Virus genome (UHGV): UHGV-0201843
Reading direction: 5' to 3' (one strand)
Length of the DNA stretch: 18,268 bases
From: a virus
The notes under the pieces are model-generated. The model searched no databases. It was not told the DNA's origin and saw only the letters and a program-made list of their open reading frames with translations. The stretch's first letter is position 1, and each line of letters opens with the position of its first letter. Position numbers and translations under genes: made by a program. Below, one piece after another: positions 845-15,236 of the stretch.

Positions 845-1354
845 ATGGCAAATGTAAAAGATTTATTAAACAAATATTCAAACGGTGGTGCAAAATTCGA
901 GTATGACAATGAAAAAGAAAGAGATTACATCAAACTAGGTGAATTGGATTCATCAAAAACATACCCTATTGAAGCACTATTTATTAATACCAAAGGTAAA
1001 TTTGGTGATCAAGGTGTTATTATTAGTGGTGATTATATTGTAAATCTACCTAATCACTTAACAGAAATGATTGAAGATATGAGAAAAGATGAAGAAATGG
1101 TTGATGCAATCAATCAACGTTTATTTGATTTTGAAATTTATGAATTTGAATCTAAAAAATATAATCGTAAATCACATAGTATTAATTTAGTACCTAGTGA
1201 AAAAACAAAACAAGAGGTTGAACCTGAACCTGAGCAACGTAATCCGTTATATCGTGAACCTGAATCTGAAAAAAAAGTAGAAAATGATCGACGTAACCCG
1301 TTCGCTCACGCTAATGGTGCAATTGATATTAGTGATGAAGATATACCATTTTAA
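845..1354 (+). CDS. SSB-like early protein (169 aa) with acidic/Pro-rich disordered tail ending in the SSB-type C-terminal tip DISDEDIPF
   Basis: AGGAG at 831-835, 9-nt spacer, ATG at 845. The C-terminal hexapeptide DEDIPF matches the bacterial SSB C-terminal protein-interaction motif (consensus DDDIPF). It is preceded by a low-complexity E/P-rich linker. The N-terminal approximately 115 aa is not recognisably a canonical OB fold by eye. Confidence 0.6.
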   Translation: MANVKDLLNKYSNGGAKFEYDNEKERDYIKLGELDSSKTYPIEALFINTKGKFGDQGVIISGDYIVNLPNHLTEMIEDMRKDEEMVDAINQRLFDFEIYEFESKKYNRKSHSINLVPSEKTKQEVEPEPEQRNPLYREPESEKKVENDRRNPFAHANGAIDISDEDIPF

Positions 1355-1367
1355 ATAAAAATTAAAT

Positions 1368-1392
1368 AAAGGGGGCAATGCCTCCTTTTTTA
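1368..1392 (+). terminator. Rho-independent terminator or attenuator after SSB-like gene
   Basis: aaagggggc / gcctccttt stem (9 bp with one G-U, 3-nt loop) followed by TTTTT at 1386-1390. Sits 14 nt after the stop of the 845-1354 CDS. Confidence 0.55.
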
Positions 1393-1408
1393 TTATGGAG
1401 TGATAAAT

Positions 1409-1654
1409 ATGTTTGGTACTATTGTGACAATTGGATTATGTTTATATGGTATAATTGCATTATTAGTGGTTTCAATTGTAAATTATAAAAGGAATGATTA
1501 TATGAACTTAATTCAAGCATATTATAAAATCGTTAATGCACTCAATGATTATGATTTAACAGATGAACAAAAAGAAAAACTTGAACAAGCACTATTTGAA
1601 ATCACTTGTGTATTAAACGATTTAGAAAGCGAGGGAAAATATTTTGATTATTAA
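1409..1654 (+). CDS. Small N-terminally membrane-anchored early protein (about 81 aa)
   Basis: GGAG at 1397-1400 then ATG at 1409 (MFGTIVTIGLCLYGIIALLVVSIV...). The track start 1400 is a GTG inside the RBS. One predicted TM helix then an acidic helical tail. Confidence 0.6.
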   Translation: MFGTIVTIGLCLYGIIALLVVSIVNYKRNDYMNLIQAYYKIVNALNDYDLTDEQKEKLEQALFEITCVLNDLESEGKYFDY

Positions 1655-2873
1655 ACATCAAATAAAACTACATTTAAACGAATTGATTGATTGGGTGTGG
1701 AGACATAATATCAAGAATGAAAAATATTACTCAAATAATGGTTCATATGTGATATTTGATCATGGTGCAGTCGTTGAAACGTATATTATTAATAAAAATG
1801 ATTTATTTAATGTGACTGATGAAACAGAAATCACACTTGATACACCAATTCAACATTTTTTAGAAAAGGATATGTATGGTAATTATCGTGAACATTTTGA
1901 TATATCAATTCATCAATTATTGTTTTTAAATACAACAACTGATTTATGGTTAATTAATAACGATGATTCACACATTTTAATATATAAAGACGGAAAACTC
2001 ATTGATGAATATATGTATCATGAATTTGAATATGAAGCCAATCAGAATAAGCATATTTACCAAAATAATAAAGCAAGTGGTACATACCCACATCAAAGCG
2101 AACAAAACGTAAAAAAACCGAACAATCACCCTACCCCAAAACCTGAAACACCTGAAGATCACACACCAAAAGTTAGAACAGTTAAGACATTAAACGGTAC
2201 AGTAATGAAAGATTATACACCCGTTTCATCAATACAATATGTTAAATCTGTTGGAATCATTGGTGACAGTGTGGGTAAAGGCGCGCATGCTTCATATAAC
2301 TTTGGTGATTATATTAATGAAAAAAGTGGTGCAAAAATAAAAAACTTATCAGTCAGTAGTGCCACAATGAGTGATGTGAAAGATAATAATATCATTAATC
2401 AAGCGAAACAATTAAAAGATAATGAACTCGTGATTATACAGGGTACTGATGATGATTGGTTGTTTAATTCTAATACAGGTGTTGAAGTAGGAAATAAACT
2501 TACAGATACGAAAACATATATCGGTGCATTTTATAAGGTTATCGAAACGGTTAAAGAAAATAACCCAAAAGCTAAAATCATAGTGATTACACCTACAAAA
2601 CAAGCAAAAGTTGACGATACTGGAAAAGTAATCAGACGTGATACAGATAAAAATAAAAAAGGTTACACGTTGAAAACCTATGTTGACGCACAAGTAAAAG
2701 CAACTAAAGATTTAGGATTAGCTTTATATAATGCGTATGATGATTCATTGATTAATCCATATGAAGCAAAATTCAGACAATCGTCAATGAAAGATGGATT
2801 ACACCCAACAAAATGGGGACATGAAGTAATGTACTACCGTATAGCAGAAACATATCATAAAAAATTTGATTGA
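1644..2873 (+). CDS. Fusion protein (409 aa): N-terminal domain of unknown function, Pro/Thr-rich linker, C-terminal SGNH/GDSL-family hydrolase (esterase) domain
   Basis: TTG start at 1644, preceded by GAGGG (1631-1635) with an 8-nt spacer, overlapping the upstream stop. SGNH blocks: GDS in VGIIGDSVGKG (block I); GTDDD (block III variant of GxND); DGLHPT (block V DxxH catalytic dyad). Linker PNNHPTPKPETPEDHTPK. Confidence 0.7.
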   Translation: MIIKHQIKLHLNELIDWVWRHNIKNEKYYSNNGSYVIFDHGAVVETYIINKNDLFNVTDETEITLDTPIQHFLEKDMYGNYREHFDISIHQLLFLNTTTDLWLINNDDSHILIYKDGKLIDEYMYHEFEYEANQNKHIYQNNKASGTYPHQSEQNVKKPNNHPTPKPETPEDHTPKVRTVKTLNGTVMKDYTPVSSIQYVKSVGIIGDSVGKGAHASYNFGDYINEKSGAKIKNLSVSSATMSDVKDNNIINQAKQLKDNELVIIQGTDDDWLFNSNTGVEVGNKLTDTKTYIGAFYKVIETVKENNPKAKIIVITPTKQAKVDDTGKVIRRDTDKNKKGYTLKTYVDAQVKATKDLGLALYNAYDDSLINPYEAKFRQSSMKDGLHPTKWGHEVMYYRIAETYHKKFD

Positions 2874-3445: not shown

Positions 3446-4705
3446 ATGAAAAAGTCACGACTGAATGAGGTCAAAGATTATCAAAATTTTGTAACTAAGT
3501 TTAGACGATCTATTCCAAAGCAATATAACCAAATTGAACTTGTTGATGATTTAATGAATTTAGATATAGATTTTCTTATTTCTATATCAAACCGTTCAGA
3601 TGGTAAAACATTCAACTATGTTGCTTTTTTTATGAAGTTAGCCATTGATTTAGACATCAAATTCACACTACTAGCAAGACACCATACGTTACGTGACGCA
3701 TACAGAGAATTGTTAGAACGTATTTGTATCGAACAAAAACATTTTAACGATAATGATCTATTCTTTAGAAACACACAAGACTATATAGCTGTTGGATATG
3801 GTGATAAAGAAATAGGGATTATTACACATCTCAATAACGCAACAGATTTAAAATATCATTCCAACTTCATGAAAAACTTTCCTATTATCATCTATGATGA
3901 ATTTTTAGCATTGGAAAGTGACTATTTGATAGATGAGTGGGAAAAGTTAAAAACGATTTATGAATCTATTGATAGAAATCATGGCAATATTGATTATATT
4001 AAAATTCCTAAAATCGTATTATTAGGTAATGCTGTGAACTTTTCAAGTCCACTACTTGCAAACTTAAATATTTATGAACAATTACAACATCATTCTAAGT
4101 TTGCGATGAATAGTAAACGTCAATACGGAAATATCATGTTAGAAATGAGGCGTAATGAATTTTCTAATGAGAATCGTAATACACGTGCATTTAATACGGA
4201 TCATGATTCAATGACAACGGGTGAATTTGATTTCAATACATTTAATTTAGCTGATGATCATTTACGTGCACATATATCGAGTAATGGAAACTTTTTCTAT
4301 ATTAAAACCCCTTACAATTATATTAAAGTAATGTATCACTTGAATGACTATCAAACGAATATTAAAGTCGTGCCTTATGCAGACAATTATCAGTTTTGTA
4401 CTGATGTTTCAGATGTTGAAAAAAACGCAATATATTTAAAAGATACATTTTATAAGGAAAATCATTCTAAACGTTATTATAACCCCTCAAATCTTCATTT
4501 TGACAATGCTTATAGTAAGTCTTTTATATTGAATCAAGATGATTTTATTTATCTAAACATGAACAAAATTATTAAGTATCATTTAAAAACTGAACGTAAT
4601 AAAAACGGTTACAAACCTTTTGAACAAAAAGAAAAAATGTATTATGATAATTACATTGAACGTACCAAAAAAAATCTAGTCAAATCATTTATAAGCAATG
4701 TGTAA
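3446..4705 (+). CDS. DNA encapsidation (packaging) ATPase, phi29 gp16-like
   Basis: Strong RBS GGAGGG (3435-3440) before ATG at 3446. The upstream ATG at 3395 lacks a good RBS. Walker A-like SNRSDGKT and Walker B-like hydrophobic run + DE (IIIYDEF). Position upstream of the polymerase as in 44AHJD-like phages. Confidence 0.7.
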   Translation: MKKSRLNEVKDYQNFVTKFRRSIPKQYNQIELVDDLMNLDIDFLISISNRSDGKTFNYVAFFMKLAIDLDIKFTLLARHHTLRDAYRELLERICIEQKHFNDNDLFFRNTQDYIAVGYGDKEIGIITHLNNATDLKYHSNFMKNFPIIIYDEFLALESDYLIDEWEKLKTIYESIDRNHGNIDYIKIPKIVLLGNAVNFSSPLLANLNIYEQLQHHSKFAMNSKRQYGNIMLEMRRNEFSNENRNTRAFNTDHDSMTTGEFDFNTFNLADDHLRAHISSNGNFFYIKTPYNYIKVMYHLNDYQTNIKVVPYADNYQFCTDVSDVEKNAIYLKDTFYKENHSKRYYNPSNLHFDNAYSKSFILNQDDFIYLNMNKIIKYHLKTERNKNGYKPFEQKEKMYYDNYIERTKKNLVKSFISNV

Positions 4706-4709
4706 AGTT

Positions 4710-4738
4710 TTTACATATTGCTTTTTATGTGTTATAAT
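4710..4738 (+). promoter_or_regulatory. Strong sigma-A promoter with extended -10 (TTTACA - 17 bp - TGTTATAAT) for the DNA polymerase gene
   Basis: TTTACA at 4710-4715, 17-nt spacer ending TGT, TATAAT at 4733-4738. The polymerase RBS GAGGTG and ATG at 4763 follow. Confidence 0.55.
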
Positions 4739-4762: not shown

Positions 4763-7057
4763 ATGGGATTATTAGAAGCAATGCAAAAAAATAAAGGTCA
4801 AAAACATATGTACCTTTATTGGGATATAGAAACATTAAATTATAATAAAATTGCTGGTAGAGAAAAACCTACAAAATATAAAAACGTGACATACAGTGTT
4901 GCAATTGGTTGGTATGATGGACAACATATTGATGTTGAAGTTTTTTCTAGTTTTAAAGCCTTTTATCAATCTTTTTTCGAATATGCACAAAGACGAGATA
5001 CAATAACAAAATCACAAACTACAATCAATATGATCGCACATAATTGTAATAAATATGATAATCACTTTCTACTACACGATACACAAAATTTCTTTGGTGA
5101 TGATTTAATTATTGAAAATTTATATATGAAAAGTGCTGATGATAATTCAAATACAGTTAATATCAATGAAGCAAAATTATTATCTAAAGAAACCAATGTG
5201 ATTTTAGAAAAACGTGTGAAATCAAGTATTAATTTAGATTTAATGATGTATTTAAAAGGTTTTAAGTTTAATATTATAGACAATTTTATGAAAACCAATA
5301 CATCAATCGCAACACTCGGTAAAAAGCTCAAAGACGGTGGGTTTATCAGTGAAGATGAGTTAAAAACTGATTTTGAATATGATGTGTTTGATGTTGAACA
5401 TGATATGACAGATAAACAAGCTTATGATTATGCTTATGAATGTTTTCATCAACTTACAGCATCACAAATGACCTATATTAGAAACGATGTCATCATATTA
5501 GGTATGTGTCATATCCATTATAGTGATATATTTCCCGGATTTGATTATAGTGCGATGACCTTTAGTGTAAATATTATGAAAAGCTATATTAATAATGAAA
5601 CAACACGATTGCAATTACTCAATAAAAAAGGTAAACAAAAAATATCATATACGGACTTTACATTTTTTGATATGAATTTTTATGACTTTATCAAAGGTTT
5701 CTATCGTGGTGGTTTAAATATGTATAATTCACGATACGTTGACAAAATCATTGATGAGGAATGTTTTTCAATAGACATAAATAGTAGTTATCCCTATGTG
5801 ATGTATCATGAAAAATTACCGATGTATATTTATGATTTTGATGAATATGAACAACCGACAACGATACACATTGATTTAACCAATAAAGATTATTTTTCAC
5901 TTTATAAAATGGATAAGGTCACATTTAATCGTACTATTTTAAGAAATATTGAAAGTGATTTAATTAAGCAATGTCTTGTTAAATACTACAATAATGACAA
6001 AAAGTTTGTTAATATAAATACAAACACTTTACGCATGATTGAAGATTTAACGGGTTTAACTTTTGACAAAATAAAAGTGTTTGCTTTTGTGTGTTATGAA
6101 TGTGAATACTTTGGCGCTCGTGATATTATTCATCATAATTATTTCATCAAAACGCAAGGTAAATTAGATAAAAAAATCATTATGGATTCACCCTATAATT
6201 ACACGATCACTGATGAAGTCAATACACATACTTATTCAAAAGAAGAAATCATGTTAAGTAAAGTTGTTTTAAATGGTCTGTATGGTATACCTGCTTTACG
6301 GTCACATTTTAATTTGTTTAGACGTGATGAGGACGGTTTTTTAGTTAACCATGAAAATGGATATAAAAACAGTGAACGTAATTTATTATTTTCTACTTTT
6401 GTGACATCACAAGCCCTTTATAATTTACTTGAACCATTAAAGTCATTAACACAATCTGAAATAGATGACTGCTTTATATATTGTGATACTGACAGTTTAT
6501 ATTTAAAATCAAAAATTAAACATAAAATAAATGATGAATTATTTGACCCTATTGCATTAGGTAAGTGGGATATAGAAAATCATGTCATTAAAAAAATGTA
6601 TGTACTCAATCATAAAAAGTACGCCTACCAAAAAGAAGATAACACAATTAAAATTGCCAGTGCAGGTATTCCATTAGACGCATTTAATAAGAATCAATCT
6701 TTTGAAAATTTTATTAAAAATGATTTTCACCATAAAGCAATTGTGTATAACAATAAATCCATTTATAACGAACAAAAAACAATATCTATTTACCCGTCAA
6801 AAACATATATTGAAAAGGGTACGCCTTATGATTATTATTTCACTAAAGAATTAGAGGATAGAAAAGAAGATGTTTTAAAACAAGCAAGACAAGAATATGA
6901 TGATGTGAATGATGATGATATATTATATATAGAGAGTGAAGTAGGCGCTTTTTCATTTAGTGACTTATTTCCATATCAATTTGAAATTAAAAATAAATGT
7001 GATCTTAACATATTATATATGGTTCATCAAGATATAAAAAATGACGCTACATCATAG
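4763..7057 (+). CDS. Protein-primed family-B DNA polymerase (phi29-type), 764 aa
   Basis: Exo I (LYWDIETL), Exo II (HNCNKYDNHFL), Exo III (YIRND), motif A (DINSSYP), motif B (KVVLNGLYG), motif C (YCDTDS), KxY (KKY). GAGGTG RBS. Confidence 0.95.
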   Translation: MGLLEAMQKNKGQKHMYLYWDIETLNYNKIAGREKPTKYKNVTYSVAIGWYDGQHIDVEVFSSFKAFYQSFFEYAQRRDTITKSQTTINMIAHNCNKYDNHFLLHDTQNFFGDDLIIENLYMKSADDNSNTVNINEAKLLSKETNVILEKRVKSSINLDLMMYLKGFKFNIIDNFMKTNTSIATLGKKLKDGGFISEDELKTDFEYDVFDVEHDMTDKQAYDYAYECFHQLTASQMTYIRNDVIILGMCHIHYSDIFPGFDYSAMTFSVNIMKSYINNETTRLQLLNKKGKQKISYTDFTFFDMNFYDFIKGFYRGGLNMYNSRYVDKIIDEECFSIDINSSYPYVMYHEKLPMYIYDFDEYEQPTTIHIDLTNKDYFSLYKMDKVTFNRTILRNIESDLIKQCLVKYYNNDKKFVNINTNTLRMIEDLTGLTFDKIKVFAFVCYECEYFGARDIIHHNYFIKTQGKLDKKIIMDSPYNYTITDEVNTHTYSKEEIMLSKVVLNGLYGIPALRSHFNLFRRDEDGFLVNHENGYKNSERNLLFSTFVTSQALYNLLEPLKSLTQSEIDDCFIYCDTDSLYLKSKIKHKINDELFDPIALGKWDIENHVIKKMYVLNHKKYAYQKEDNTIKIASAGIPLDAFNKNQSFENFIKNDFHHKAIVYNNKSIYNEQKTISIYPSKTYIEKGTPYDYYFTKELEDRKEDVLKQARQEYDDVNDDDILYIESEVGAFSFSDLFPYQFEIKNKCDLNILYMVHQDIKNDATS

Positions 7058-7070
7058 TAGCGTCTTTTTT
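7043..7070. terminator. Bidirectional rho-independent terminator between the convergent early (+) and late (-) operons, overlapping the polymerase stop codon
   Basis: Perfect 8-bp stem gacgctac / gtagcgtc with loop atcata (contains the polymerase TAG). Followed by TTTTTT (7065-7070) on the plus strand and preceded by an A-run (tataaaaaat, 7033-7042) that gives a U-run for the minus-strand transcript. Confidence 0.65.
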
Positions 7071-12543: not shown

Positions 12544-14373
12544 CTACCCTAGAATAATCAACCCTTTACTTGATAATGTTTGAGGGTCAACATTGGTAGA
12601 ATATCCATGGTCTTTATCTGTAAATATCCTACTACCATTATACACGTTATAAACTGTTTTGTTACTAGATATGTTAGAACCAAAACAAGTAATTTCACCA
12701 CCACGTGTTGCATAAACGGGTTCATTTTTAGTACCTGAAATATTTGACGCTTCGGCGAACACTTTAGACGCATAAGCTAAAATACCAAAATCACCACTAC
12801 CTTTAATTGTGATTCTATCTGCAAATATTTGACCACCACGTGTGGCTTCAATACCGTTACGACCTGCACGTTCAATCACTGCTTCATTAATAGAAATCAC
12901 TGAACCATATGCCAATACGTTATCATCTTTTGAACGTGATACTTTCGCACCATATGCAGCGACATATCCACCACGTGTGGCTTCTAATCCACGACGACCA
13001 TTTCCATCACAATTAATCAATTGACAATACACATCACCTGCATAAGCAAGTACGCCATTACGTTTATTTCCATTCGTTGTTGATAATCTTGCTTGAACTG
13101 TTGAACCATGTGTACATTGGATTCCGTCAAGTCCGTTTTCATTTGCATTACCACTTGTGAAATCCACTTTTGAATTGTTACTTGCTATGACACCATGCCA
13201 TTTATTACGTGAAGCTGTAGCTTTAGTAGCATCAATTGAACAACCTCTATTTGCCATAATACCACTTGCACCACAACCATTAGCAATCCCTTGATCAAAG
13301 TTAATATTTGATGAACGGGTAGCAATGACACCGTATGTTGTTTGTGAATTTGAGCAATCAGAATATCTTAAATCAATATCACTTGAGGCGTAACTAACAA
13401 CGTTATCATCAATAGTATCAGTGATTTTACAGTTTCTAGCACTGGCTTGTGAACCTGTGGTTACCATTAAACCATGATGACCGTTGAAACGTGCTTCAGT
13501 ATAATCTATATAACCACTTGCACCATGTGAGAAATGAATACCAATCTCACCACAACGATTGACTGTCATGTAATTGGCTGTGAGTGATGAGTTAAATATT
13601 CTTATTCCATCACCATACATATTTTGTTGATTGTTAAATTCTTCTAATTGTTCACGATTACCATTGTAGGAAAAATCACAATAGTTGGCCCCTATATGTG
13701 AACCATTGACACCACATAAACCAATAAAATTAAAGTGTGTTGACCCACCACGTTCAGTCATTTCAAACGTTGTATTATCCATTAAGAAACCACAGTTAAT
13801 ACTATCTGAAAAATCTTTGTTTTGAAGTTTAAAATCAATTTTAGGGAATGTTGAATTAATTCCATAAAATAATGGTTTTACTCTAAAAATTGGATTTGTT
13901 TTTATTTCAACTTGACGATTTAATTCAGTTTCATAGGCTTCTACAATATCATTTTCTGATGTAATCGTAATATGATTATAACGTTTATCACGTAAGAATA
14001 ATTGTTCGCCCATCTTGTAATCTTTAAGTAAAATCACACGTATAGATTTTGGTTGTACAATTAAATCTTCAATATGTTCAAAACAATGATTCAATGTATC
14101 AAAGTCACCTTTTTGTCCGACTGTATAAGTCACATCAGTATTTGATAATGTTAAAGCGTCGTATGTTTCTTTCATTTTTTGTATATCATCTGCTAAACCA
14201 TTGACAAAATCACATAATTCAAAAATAAAACCATTGAAACGTGCTAAGTAATCATAATATGATTTTGAATTGGTATTGTAATCTGCATTGTCTGTATAAA
14301 ATGGTAATCGTGACACACCACGTCTATATCCGTATTCATTATTGTAGTTGATTCGACCGTTATTAATATACAT
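12544..14373 (-). CDS. Tail fibre / appendage (receptor-binding) protein with beta-helix (pectate-lyase-like) repeats, 609 aa
   Basis: GGAGG RBS 7 nt before ATG at 14373. Gly/Asn/Ser-rich beta-solenoid-like repeats (NGSHIGANYCDFSYNGN, GIHFSHGASGYIDY, NGHHGLMVTTGSQ). Position between lower collar and lysis genes as for the phi29 gp12 or P68 fibre. Confidence 0.6.
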   Translation of the reverse strand: MYINNGRINYNNEYGYRRGVSRLPFYTDNADYNTNSKSYYDYLARFNGFIFELCDFVNGLADDIQKMKETYDALTLSNTDVTYTVGQKGDFDTLNHCFEHIEDLIVQPKSIRVILLKDYKMGEQLFLRDKRYNHITITSENDIVEAYETELNRQVEIKTNPIFRVKPLFYGINSTFPKIDFKLQNKDFSDSINCGFLMDNTTFEMTERGGSTHFNFIGLCGVNGSHIGANYCDFSYNGNREQLEEFNNQQNMYGDGIRIFNSSLTANYMTVNRCGEIGIHFSHGASGYIDYTEARFNGHHGLMVTTGSQASARNCKITDTIDDNVVSYASSDIDLRYSDCSNSQTTYGVIATRSSNINFDQGIANGCGASGIMANRGCSIDATKATASRNKWHGVIASNNSKVDFTSGNANENGLDGIQCTHGSTVQARLSTTNGNKRNGVLAYAGDVYCQLINCDGNGRRGLEATRGGYVAAYGAKVSRSKDDNVLAYGSVISINEAVIERAGRNGIEATRGGQIFADRITIKGSGDFGILAYASKVFAEASNISGTKNEPVYATRGGEITCFGSNISSNKTVYNVYNGSRIFTDKDHGYSTNVDPQTLSSKGLIILG

Positions 14374-14384
14374 TGTTTATCCTC

Positions 14385-15236
14385 CTACCATATGTGTAAA
14401 AAACATTCTTTATCATATGTTTTAAATATTGTATCACGCATGGAATATAATTTTTGTAAGTTATCAATTAAGTATTGTTTTGTTAAACCTGTACGATTCA
14501 TTTCATTTTGTGACTCAGTATTACGTTTCGTATCACTTTCACCGTTTCTTAATGAATCAAACGTATTATCTTTTGTACCTGTTTTTTCTGATACTGTTTC
14601 ACTGGTATTTTTATCTCGTGAAATCGTGTTTGTGTCTGCATAATCAAGCACTGTATTATCTACATCAATATTCACTTGTGATTGTGGTAAAGTAGATTCA
14701 GCAGTACGGTTATCATCAAAACTTTTTGTAATTGTATCTTCATAATCTTTATATTCTTCATGACCTTTGTCTTGTTGTCTATCTTTCGTTTGACCTTGTT
14801 CAATGGCATTTTCTAATGCTTTGCCAATATCCGTTGACTGTGTGTCAGTCATTTGTTCAATATATTTATACATATCTGAACCATAGACACGATATATATA
14901 TTCTTCATGTGTCATGGTGATGTATAATACTTGACTTGCAAAGGATTCTACTGTTTGACGACCTATTTCACGATATAAAAAACGCAATGTGAAACTTTCT
15001 TTAAAATATCGGTCAATCCGTTCATCATTAAACATGAAACCTTTAAAAAACATATTATCAACAATTTGTTTGACATCATCATCAAAATACAACATCTTTT
15101 GCATAAACGCATGTTTTGAATCGTTAAAGTGGATTCTATCATTATTAACAAATTCATTTAACCCTAAACGTTGTAATTCACTTTCAATGATTTCATATAA
15201 CGTTGTTGTGTGTTTACTCAACTTTTCCACCACCAA
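14385..15236 (-). CDS. Lower collar protein (putative), about 280 aa. Start codon uncertain: TTG/GTG cluster at 15236-15219
   Basis: Size and synteny (downstream of portal). No ATG and no clear SD. Start overlaps the portal C-terminus (GGTGGTGGAAAAGTTG), which suggests translational coupling. Polar low-complexity C-terminal region. Confidence 0.5.
   Translation of the reverse strand: MVVEKLSKHTTTLYEIIESELQRLGLNEFVNNDRIHFNDSKHAFMQKMLYFDDDVKQIVDNMFFKGFMFNDERIDRYFKESFTLRFLYREIGRQTVESFASQVLYITMTHEEYIYRVYGSDMYKYIEQMTDTQSTDIGKALENAIEQGQTKDRQQDKGHEEYKDYEDTITKSFDDNRTAESTLPQSQVNIDVDNTVLDYADTNTISRDKNTSETVSEKTGTKDNTFDSLRNGESDTKRNTESQNEMNRTGLTKQYLIDNLQKLYSMRDTIFKTYDKECFLHIW

Follow-up and report, generated by a model that had tools for sequence, protein, structure and literature searches.

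The closest described counterpart of the gene treated here is gp6 of the Staphylococcus epidermidis picovirus Andhra, a virion protein that was found there both by cryo-EM and by mass spectrometry, with spectral counts of 61/62 (Hawkins et al., 2022; PMC9710869). Each Andhra virion carries 12 copies of gp6, arranged as six asymmetric dimers (PMC9710869). [quoted passage not shown] The linker that follows has no resolved density in the map, and the C-terminal domain, a predicted hydrolase related to the C-terminus of 80alpha Tal, was placed by rigid-body fit of an AlphaFold model into weak density (PMC9710869). A similar domain of predicted activity is found in Tal (gp59) of the S. aureus siphovirus 80alpha/phi11 (PDB 6V8I; PMC7048315), again borne by the virion at the end that contacts the host. 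In Tal, however, the SGNH domain follows a gp27-like baseplate hub at the N-terminus (Pfam PF24650, PF06605) and forms a trimer at the tail tip, whereas in gp6 it is fused to an RBP-anchor domain and, in the Andhra structure, sits in dimers on the tail stem (PMC9710869). Since the module also stands at the C-terminus of Tal of staphylococcal siphoviruses, it has repeatedly been placed at the host-contact end of virions.

The window analysed here, a stretch of 18,268 nucleotides, is a complete genome of an Andhra-like S. epidermidis picovirus, with ~91% identity to phage Andhra over 100% of its length. On its + strand, an ORF at 1644..2873 runs from a TTG start to a TGA stop and is translated into 409 amino acids with no internal stops. 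By sequence comparison, this ORF is the orthologue of Andhra gp6 and a member of the RBP-anchor-hydrolase family (PHROG 33778). Its full-length match to PDB 8EGR chain K (residues 1-409 to 1-409), at E = 5.6e-245, puts the observation far beyond chance, and PHROG 33778, named 'virion structural protein', matches at E = 6.6e-251. The two proteins, 86.3% identical overall, share the length of 409 aa, the TTG start, the Shine-Dalgarno sequence, the three-part architecture, the W-x-W motif and all catalytic blocks. They also share the genomic position, with gp5 before the gene and those for the terminal protein and encapsidation after it. On the other hand, the N-domain is just 80.4% and the linker 66.7% identical, although the RBP and stem partners are 96-97% identical; codon 7 is Met in Andhra and Ile here; and the neighbouring gp4 gene of Andhra is absent from the window.

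Thus, the finding is real and already known, because the gene has been described in Andhra as a tail anchor with a tethered predicted esterase-type enzyme. The sequence-only reading had placed the ORF, its TTG start and the motifs GDSVG, GTDDD and DGLHP with Asp384-x-x-His387 correctly. The novelty that it saw in the gene does not hold, since homologues in related phages are present and annotated. Indeed, matching genes in the Andhra-like records examined are annotated, among other names, as 'putative esterase or lipase', 'SGNH/GDSL hydrolase family protein', 'RBP anchor; hydrolase' (the annotation of the St 134 orthologue) and 'virion structural protein', so that the idea of esterases being foreign to this arm of the genome is wrong for the genus, Andhravirus.

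Anchor domain and linker

The N-terminal domain had been described as unknown, but it is the RBP-anchor domain already solved in Andhra (8EGR chains K/L) and grouped in PHROG 467/33778. It covers residues 1-143 (1644..2072, + strand). The W-x-W motif by which gp6 was recognised in the Andhra cryo-EM map (PMC9710869) is present in the N-terminal helix as W17-V18-W19 (1692-1700, + strand). PHROG 467, whose members are staphylococcal phage proteins of ~130 aa that mostly stand alone, matches the domain at E = 3.2e-19, and the identity to such stand-alone proteins is 35-36%. The Pfam matches to the domain and its stand-alone relatives were DUF1828 (E = 0.07-0.24), YjbF (0.03) and MotCF (0.11), all under the cut-offs and regarded as noise. 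As expected of a protein with no signal peptide, no hydrophobic segment was found, the maximum Kyte-Doolittle mean over 19 residues being 0.75. In the AlphaFold2 model of the full-length protein, residues 1-172 have pLDDT below 50, which makes the model of the N-domain unusable, and the solved Andhra structure was therefore relied on for this part.

Residues 144-185 (2073..2198, + strand) form a flexible linker, with 7 Pro, 6 Thr and 5 Lys in 42 residues. The Pro/Thr-rich linker to a separate N-terminal domain, as proposed from the sequence, is supported by this composition together with the low pLDDT, which stays below 50 over residues 121-172 and thus over most of the linker. It is also the most divergent part of the protein in comparison with Andhra.

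Both partners of the N-domain are encoded on the - strand of the window: the gp15 orthologue, a receptor-binding protein, at 12544..14373 (95.9% identical to Andhra gp15) and the gp16 orthologue, the tail stem or lower collar protein, at 14385..15236 (97.1% identical to Andhra gp16). The true start of the latter may lie a few codons inside the ORF. Judged by the cryo-EM structure of the Andhra orthologue, residues 1-143 would form six asymmetric dimers, or 12 copies per virion, and these dimers would wedge between the gp16 tail-stem barrel and twelve gp15 RBP trimers, fixing the trimers in place. The linker, about 40 residues long, would then tether the serine hydrolase domain.

The SGNH-fold domain and its oxyanion hole

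The C-terminal domain (residues 186-409; 2199..2870, + strand) has the three-layer alpha/beta/alpha SGNH fold and is more conserved than the other two parts, its identity to Andhra being 93.8% where that of the N-domain is 80.4%. Pfam PF13472 (Lipase_GDSL_2) matches residues 206-394 with 39.5 bits, above the curated cut-off of 32.9; PF00657 scores 23.5, just under its cut-off of 23.6; and AlphaFold2 models the domain with pLDDT above 90. Together with an alignment of 101 homologues of ~30-90% identity, these results bear out an SGNH/GDSL fold with a catalytic Ser and an Asp-x-x-His pair, as first read from the motifs. Block I, GDSVG (residues 207-211; 2262-2276, + strand), contains the predicted nucleophile Ser209 (codon at 2268..2270, + strand), and G207, D208 and S209 are invariant in 101/101 aligned homologues. 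Block V, DGLHP (residues 384-388; 2793..2807, + strand), provides the predicted triad residues Asp384 and His387. The histidine is again found in 101/101 homologues, and residue 384 is Asp in 96/101 and Glu in 5/101. Conservation of Ser209, His387 and Asp384/Glu across the alignment argues for selection on what would be a catalytic triad.

The oxyanion hole is different from the canonical family pattern, in which it is built from Gly and Asn (PMC9487903). In block II (NLSVSSAT; 2343..2366, + strand), Ser239 takes the canonical Gly position, a column occupied in the 101-sequence alignment by G (57), S (21) and A (20). In block III (QGTDDDW, residues 266-272; 2439..2459, + strand), the canonical Asn position is taken by Asp, either D269 or D270 of the stretch G267-T-D-D-D271, according to the register of the 4Q7Q or the 7BXD alignment; these nearest solved relatives read GTNDW (4Q7Q) and GGVND (7BXD) in this block. 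QGTDDDW is invariant or nearly so in the 101 sequences, and throughout the gp6/Tal clade Asp stands where the oxyanion-hole Asn would be. Tal shares this clade-specific block as well as DGLHP, its SGNH domain being 45-49% identical along the entire length (E = 2e-59), but the Ser-Ser of gp6 in block II is Gly-Gly in Tal. Thus, the GDS of block I and the D-x-x-H of block V are present, while the Gly of block II and the Asn of block III are not. At the block II position the backbone amide alone is needed, and Ser is found there in S. pneumoniae OatA (SpOatA) too; the SASA family and BcPatB1, accepted as SGNH members, also have no functional Asn (PMC9487903). A literature search for Asp replacing the block III Asn gave solely other kinds of exception. 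Since homology and fold stand despite the absence of this Asn, the domain is classed as an SGNH-fold homologue whose oxyanion hole is non-canonical. It belongs to the SGNH superfamily by homology and fold and is not a canonical S-G-N-H enzyme; Ser239 in block II is a mark of this non-canonical variant and does not exclude membership.

On this evidence, the protein is very probably a two-module tail protein, in which an RBP anchor carries a tethered SGNH hydrolase that would act on an ester of a cell-wall polymer. The clade-wide Asp in block III and, in Andhra-like proteins, Ser239 in block II count against such a mechanism. They would suit a C-terminal domain that keeps the SGNH fold with no hydrolase activity and serves as a spacer or as a binding module, for example for wall polymer, so that RBP anchoring would be the sole real job of the protein. 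Indeed, changing the Asn to Ala abolishes activity in S. aureus OatA (PMC9487903), in PT1-9 and probably P68 the anchor alone suffices, and no demonstration of activity was found in the literature. An inactive domain is nevertheless quite unlikely: Ser209 and His387 never vary, and residue 384 is restricted to Asp or Glu, over 101 sequences that represent several genera and domain architectures, a pattern difficult to account for if catalysis had been lost. Block III, rich in Asp, is invariant as well and so looks like a functional variant and not like a decayed one, and SpOatA, BcPatB1 and the SASA family show that genuine SGNH enzymes can have an altered oxyanion hole (PMC9487903).

In the two-module reading, the RBPs would bind wall teichoic acid first and the tethered enzyme would act afterwards. 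Ser209, His387 and Asp384 would take an ester-linked substituent off a cell-wall polymer, the most plausible targets being peptidoglycan O-acetyl groups and, on teichoic acid, D-alanyl or other acyl esters; both the activity and the substrate are what we infer. Removal of the ester would make it easier for the tail-tip lysin gp10 to act or for the tail to come near the membrane. The closest functionally characterised neighbours of the domain are mostly carbohydrate O-acetyl esterases; for the nearest structural neighbour, 7BXD ('Ca_00815'), a literature search yielded no functional data. Comparison with Ape1-type peptidoglycan O-acetylesterases gave no specific similarity beyond the general SGNH fold. 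Both the canonical SGNH carbohydrate esterases, such as Ape1 (8GLD, 4K3U), and the phage tail-fibre deacetylases, such as G7C gp63.1 (4QNL) and SFP21A Gp09 (9LNA), have an identity of just 13-19%; many unrelated SGNH esterases are at least as close to gp6 as these, so that a common substrate is not indicated. A true lipase or acylhydrolase, which would attack membrane lipids or the lipoteichoic-acid anchor and open the cytoplasmic membrane for DNA entry, is very unlikely given these mostly carbohydrate-acting neighbours. The domain would face the wall surface and not the membrane beneath the thick peptidoglycan, and the 'lipase' names among GDSL entries are mostly unverified structural-genomics labels.

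Start codon and genomic setting

The TTG start (1644..1646, + strand) is preceded at a distance of 8 nt by the Shine-Dalgarno sequence GAGGGA (1631..1636, + strand), and the same context is found unchanged in Andhra and St 134. Such a start was once considered unusual for this gene, but TTG is a common start in Staphylococcus, and in Andhra gp6 it was established from the cryo-EM density (PMC9710869). In the PT1-9 gene, ATG stands at the equivalent position. Since codon 7 is ATA here (1662-1664), the ATG annotated as the start in the GenBank record of Andhra does not exist in this genome.

The start overlaps by 11 nt with the end of a gp5-like gene (1409..1654, + strand; ATG at 1409), whose 81-aa product is 87.5% identical to Andhra gp5. 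Its single N-terminal transmembrane helix is strongly hydrophobic (Kyte-Doolittle 2.68), so the upstream membrane-protein gene noticed at the outset is indeed there. In Andhra, gp5 was not detected in virions (PMC9710869). A scan for sigma-70 promoters gave 55 sites, against 56.4 expected.

The + strand arm around the gp6 orthologue contains genes for SSB, the terminal protein and DNA polymerase, and had been labelled an early/replication arm. It is not purely early, because the left arm also codes for the tail-tip protein gp1 and the packaging ATPase. Among the functions offered by the sequence-only reading, association with the virion agrees with the orthologue being a tail component of Andhra (PMC9710869), and host takeover and anti-defence found no support. 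A non-structural, intracellular early esterase for either purpose, to which the replication genes of this arm and the early/replication modules housing the stand-alone N-domain relatives in siphoviruses and myoviruses would point, is hardly credible when the orthologue is abundant in purified Andhra virions (61/62) and built into the tail density (PMC9710869), and when gp1 and the packaging ATPase share the arm.

Anchor-only relatives and the wider clade

Several relatives have the anchor and no esterase domain. In PT1-9, an anchor-only gene (WWT40380) occupies the same position, and the esterase is thus dispensable in at least one related phage. For ORF6 of P68 (PHROG 7529), also devoid of an esterase domain, pairwise BLAST gave E = 0.04 and Foldseek nothing significant; it is probably a distant homologue consisting of the anchor alone, although no P68 counterpart is given in the literature. 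The stand-alone ~130-aa proteins of PHROG 467 in staphylococcal sipho- and myoviruses, such as phiIPLA7 IPLA7_0051 and SEP1 gp118, lack the esterase domain as well, and their genes sit among early/replication genes.

Two linked readings are put forward tentatively and are, on the whole, rather doubtful. One takes the acidic block III as a sign of altered catalysis or of a preference for cationic esters: the invariant QGTDDDW in place of Asn could reflect a different catalytic arrangement, or the choice of a cationic ester such as D-alanyl of teichoic acids over O-acetyl. The other takes the anchor domain as the older and more widespread part, fused only later to the esterase. If so, P68-like phages may have an RBP anchor that has gone unnoticed, and the 'early-region' homologues of ~130 aa in staphylococcal sipho- and myoviruses may be virion or assembly proteins not recognised as such. 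gp6 of the Andhra type would have arisen when the anchor was joined to an esterase module that siphovirus Tal has as well.

As a described and structurally solved protein has been re-identified, the finding in itself changes little. The virion-borne SGNH clade to which it belongs, however, spans Andhra-like picoviruses and the Tal proteins of many staphylococcal siphoviruses. The anchor-only variants, in PT1-9 and probably P68 ORF6, are a natural comparison for what the esterase adds. To know what this clade removes from the envelope of staphylococci would help in understanding host range and could show how therapeutic phages are best designed.

Identity and genomic setting of the 1644..2873 product

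The window is a complete Andhra-like picovirus genome (Rountreeviridae, Andhravirus) of 18,268 bp, and by megablast it shares 91% identity along its whole length (100%) with Andhra, a phage of Staphylococcus epidermidis, and 88-90% with Pontiff, JBug18, Pike, St 134 and others. Its ORF at 1644..2873 (+ strand) runs without interruption for 409 codons from a TTG start, with a Shine-Dalgarno sequence, GAGGGA, 8 nt 5' of the TTG. The start overlaps by 11 nt an upstream gp5-like gene (1409..1654) for an 81-aa protein with one transmembrane helix. In the translated ORF, GDSVG (residues 207-211), QGTDDDW (266-272, nt 2439-2459) and DGLHP (384-388) all stand where the sequence-only reading had put them, and its observations on the ORF, the TTG, the linker and the upstream membrane gene are likewise borne out. 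The linker comprises 42 Pro/Thr/Lys-rich residues (144-185) between the two halves, and a scan of the protein for a hydrophobic segment found none.

This ORF is the orthologue of Andhra gp6. Amino-acid identity is 86.3%, and full-length matching to chain K of the Andhra upper tail structure (PDB 8EGR, "SGNH_hydro domain-containing protein") gives E = 5.6e-245. PHROG 33778, "virion structural protein", also matches (E = 6.6e-251). In GenBank, the orthologues are labelled "putative esterase or lipase" in Andhra, "RBP anchor; hydrolase" in St 134, and "SGNH/GDSL hydrolase family protein" in Pontiff and JBug18. Hawkins et al. (2022, PMC9710869) detected Andhra gp6 by mass spectrometry of purified virions, the spectral counts being 61 and 62. 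In the tail map, its N-terminal 143 residues were built, the anchor point being a W-x-W motif, and 12 copies form six asymmetric dimers that bridge trimers of gp15, the receptor-binding protein (RBP), and the gp16 tail-stem barrel, hence the name "RBP anchor" (PMC9710869). By HHpred the C-terminal ~200 residues match lipases and hydrolases including 80alpha Tal (6V8I), and an AlphaFold model of this domain fits weak densities in two sets, one at the RBP periphery and the other at the distal stem (PMC9710869). The gp6-type protein of the window is already known. The sequence-only reading was right about an SGNH fusion and about virion association, which it had offered as one option; its claim of novelty fails because the protein is the structurally characterised Andhra gp6.

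Gene-by-gene comparison finds one-to-one orthologues in the window for all Andhra genes but gp4 (69 aa), which is absent. At window 1355-1410 (compare Andhra 1387-1651), a terminator-like hairpin (1368-1388) separates the SSB gene (845..1354) from the gp5-like gene, the next one along. The sequence ttattatggagtgataaatATG lies 5' of gp4 in Andhra but 5' of gp5 in the window, and therefore this is a clean one-gene difference. The left arm, which had been taken as the early/replication arm, is not purely early: besides SSB, the terminal protein and the polymerase, that of Andhra has genes for the tail-tip protein gp1, for gp6 and for the packaging ATPase. Terminator-like hairpins (5 sites in the scan vs. 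1.8 +/- 1.6 expected) flank gp5, gp6, gp7 and gp8 at 1368-1388 and 4693-4723; as a pattern match, this suggests that the four genes may form one transcription unit. A promoter scan of the window gave background level. A promoter-like site of the extended -10 type, close to consensus (TTTACA-17-TATAAT with TG, 4710-4738), lies immediately 5' of the DNA polymerase gene and overlaps the hairpin at 4693-4723, and a bidirectional terminator-like hairpin (7043-7064) lies between the two convergent arms.

Codon 7 of the window ORF is ATA (Ile), and therefore the ATG annotated by GenBank in Andhra is absent. More distant orthologues (P0014-P0017) have Ile or Leu at this codon, and in the related phage PT1-9 an ATG stands where the window has TTG. 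In this way the window adds a minor item of evidence on where gp6 starts.

Fold and active site of the SGNH domain

The C-terminal domain scores 39.5 bits against Pfam Lipase_GDSL_2, above the curated cut-off of 32.9. In an AlphaFold2 model built from an alignment of 43 sequences, pLDDT is above 90 at residues ~190-409, and the SGNH fold is therefore confirmed. Its structural neighbours do not tell substrates apart.

Conservation was assessed by aligning the window protein with 100 homologues of ~30-90% identity over the SGNH domain, a gp6/Tal-type set named also for Tal, the tail-tip protein of staphylococcal siphoviruses. Ser209 and His387 do not vary across the 101 sequences, and residue 384 is Asp in 96 and Glu in 5. 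Block III reads Q-G-T-D-D-D-W with essentially no variation in the same set. Canonical block III is G-x-N-D, in which the Asn side chain contributes to the oxyanion hole (PMC9487903). The nearest solved relatives, 7BXD (GGVND) and 4Q7Q (GTNDW), keep this Asn, whereas the gp6/Tal clade has Asp at its position, D269 or D270 according to the alignment chosen. In block II (residues 234-241, nt 2343-2366), Andhra-like proteins have Ser239 in place of Gly, and the clade as a whole has G, S or A at this position; 80alpha Tal has Gly-Gly here, while the window gp6 has Ser-Ser. Altered oxyanion holes are known elsewhere, in the SASA family, SpOatA (block II Ser) and BcPatB1 (PMC9487903), and a search of the SGNH literature found no precedent for Asn to Asp. 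No gp6 assay was found in the papers searched. Most likely, the C-terminal domain functions as a serine esterase whose oxyanion hole is non-canonical; both the activity and the substrate are inferred.

The anchor domain and its stand-alone relatives

The N-terminal domain, formerly described as unknown, is solved in the Andhra structure and matches PHROG 467 (E = 3.2e-19). An exhaustive phmmer search through 1.84 billion representative proteins returned 67 clusters at E <= 0.001, nearly all of them stand-alone proteins of 120-140 aa; among these clusters an SGNH domain is attached only in the Andhra type. Examples are IPLA7_0051 of phiIPLA7 (3992-4378; 36% identity, E = 1e-12), which has an endonuclease gene on one side and rinB/rinA on the other, and gp118 of phiIBB-SEP1 (3992-4402; 35% identity, E = 2e-15). 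Each aligns in full and ends in G-K-L-[VI]-D, a conserved sequence with which the gp6 N-domain core closes. In staphylococcal siphoviruses and myoviruses, the genes for these ~130-aa proteins are placed with the early/replication genes, outside the tail modules. A 2025 phietavirus paper names such genes "Putative RBP anchor subunit" (PMC12323379); the homology has therefore already been noticed at the annotation level. In the 89-kb record of staphylococcal phage S-CoN_Ph8 (OR354831.1), 88925-89191 encodes residues 1-89 of the gp6 N-domain at 76% identity; this fragment occupies the very last bases and may be an assembly join or picovirus contamination.

Between the window and Andhra, identity is 80.4% for the N-domain, 66.7% for the linker and 93.8% for the C-terminal domain, against 95.9% for the RBP and 97.1% for the stem. 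The anchor domain (1644-2072) is thus far more diverged than the RBP and stem that it contacts (12544-15236). Within the phage collection, the nearest N-domain, at 89%, comes from vB_SurP-PSU3. The other structural proteins that diverge fast from Andhra are the head fibre protein gp13 (78%) and the core protein gp20 (81.5%).

Table 1 of the Andhra paper lists no P68 equivalent of gp6 (PMC9710869), and the P68 structure paper has no mention of ORF6. In P68, the gene with the matching location is ORF6 (136 aa), which has the SSB gene on one side and, on the other, ORF8, the counterpart of the Andhra terminal-protein gene in Table 1 (PMC9710869). Evidence on its relationship to the anchor is mixed but mostly positive. 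It gives a weak but full-length match to PHROG 467 (E = 0.0039), its family profile aligns with that of the N-domain over 119 columns (hhalign probability 95.2%, E = 2.7e-8), and an AlphaFold2 model from the ORF6 family only is confident (pLDDT 87.9). P68 ORF6 is probably a remote homologue consisting of the anchor only.

Anchor-only genes are also found at the gp6 position itself. Three ~18-kb metagenomic picovirus contigs carry there a 129-aa protein, P0126, with 55% identity to the window N-domain (1768-2157, 1697-2086 and 1579-1968 in L006-L008, respectively). These contigs share 84% identity with PT1-9 (PP212902.1), a phage isolate whose host is S. chromogenes and which is an Andhravirus by classification. 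PT1-9 has a 129-aa anchor-only gene (1730-2119) which retains W-V-W, and the genes of PT1-9 and the three contigs share 54-55% identity with the window N-domain; the RBPs of PT1-9 and the window are 72% identical. By tblastn, no SGNH domain was detected in the complete 18,318-bp PT1-9 genome at E up to 10. Since PT1-9 keeps the anchor without the SGNH domain, the anchor is the conserved core of gp6 and the esterase an accessory module.
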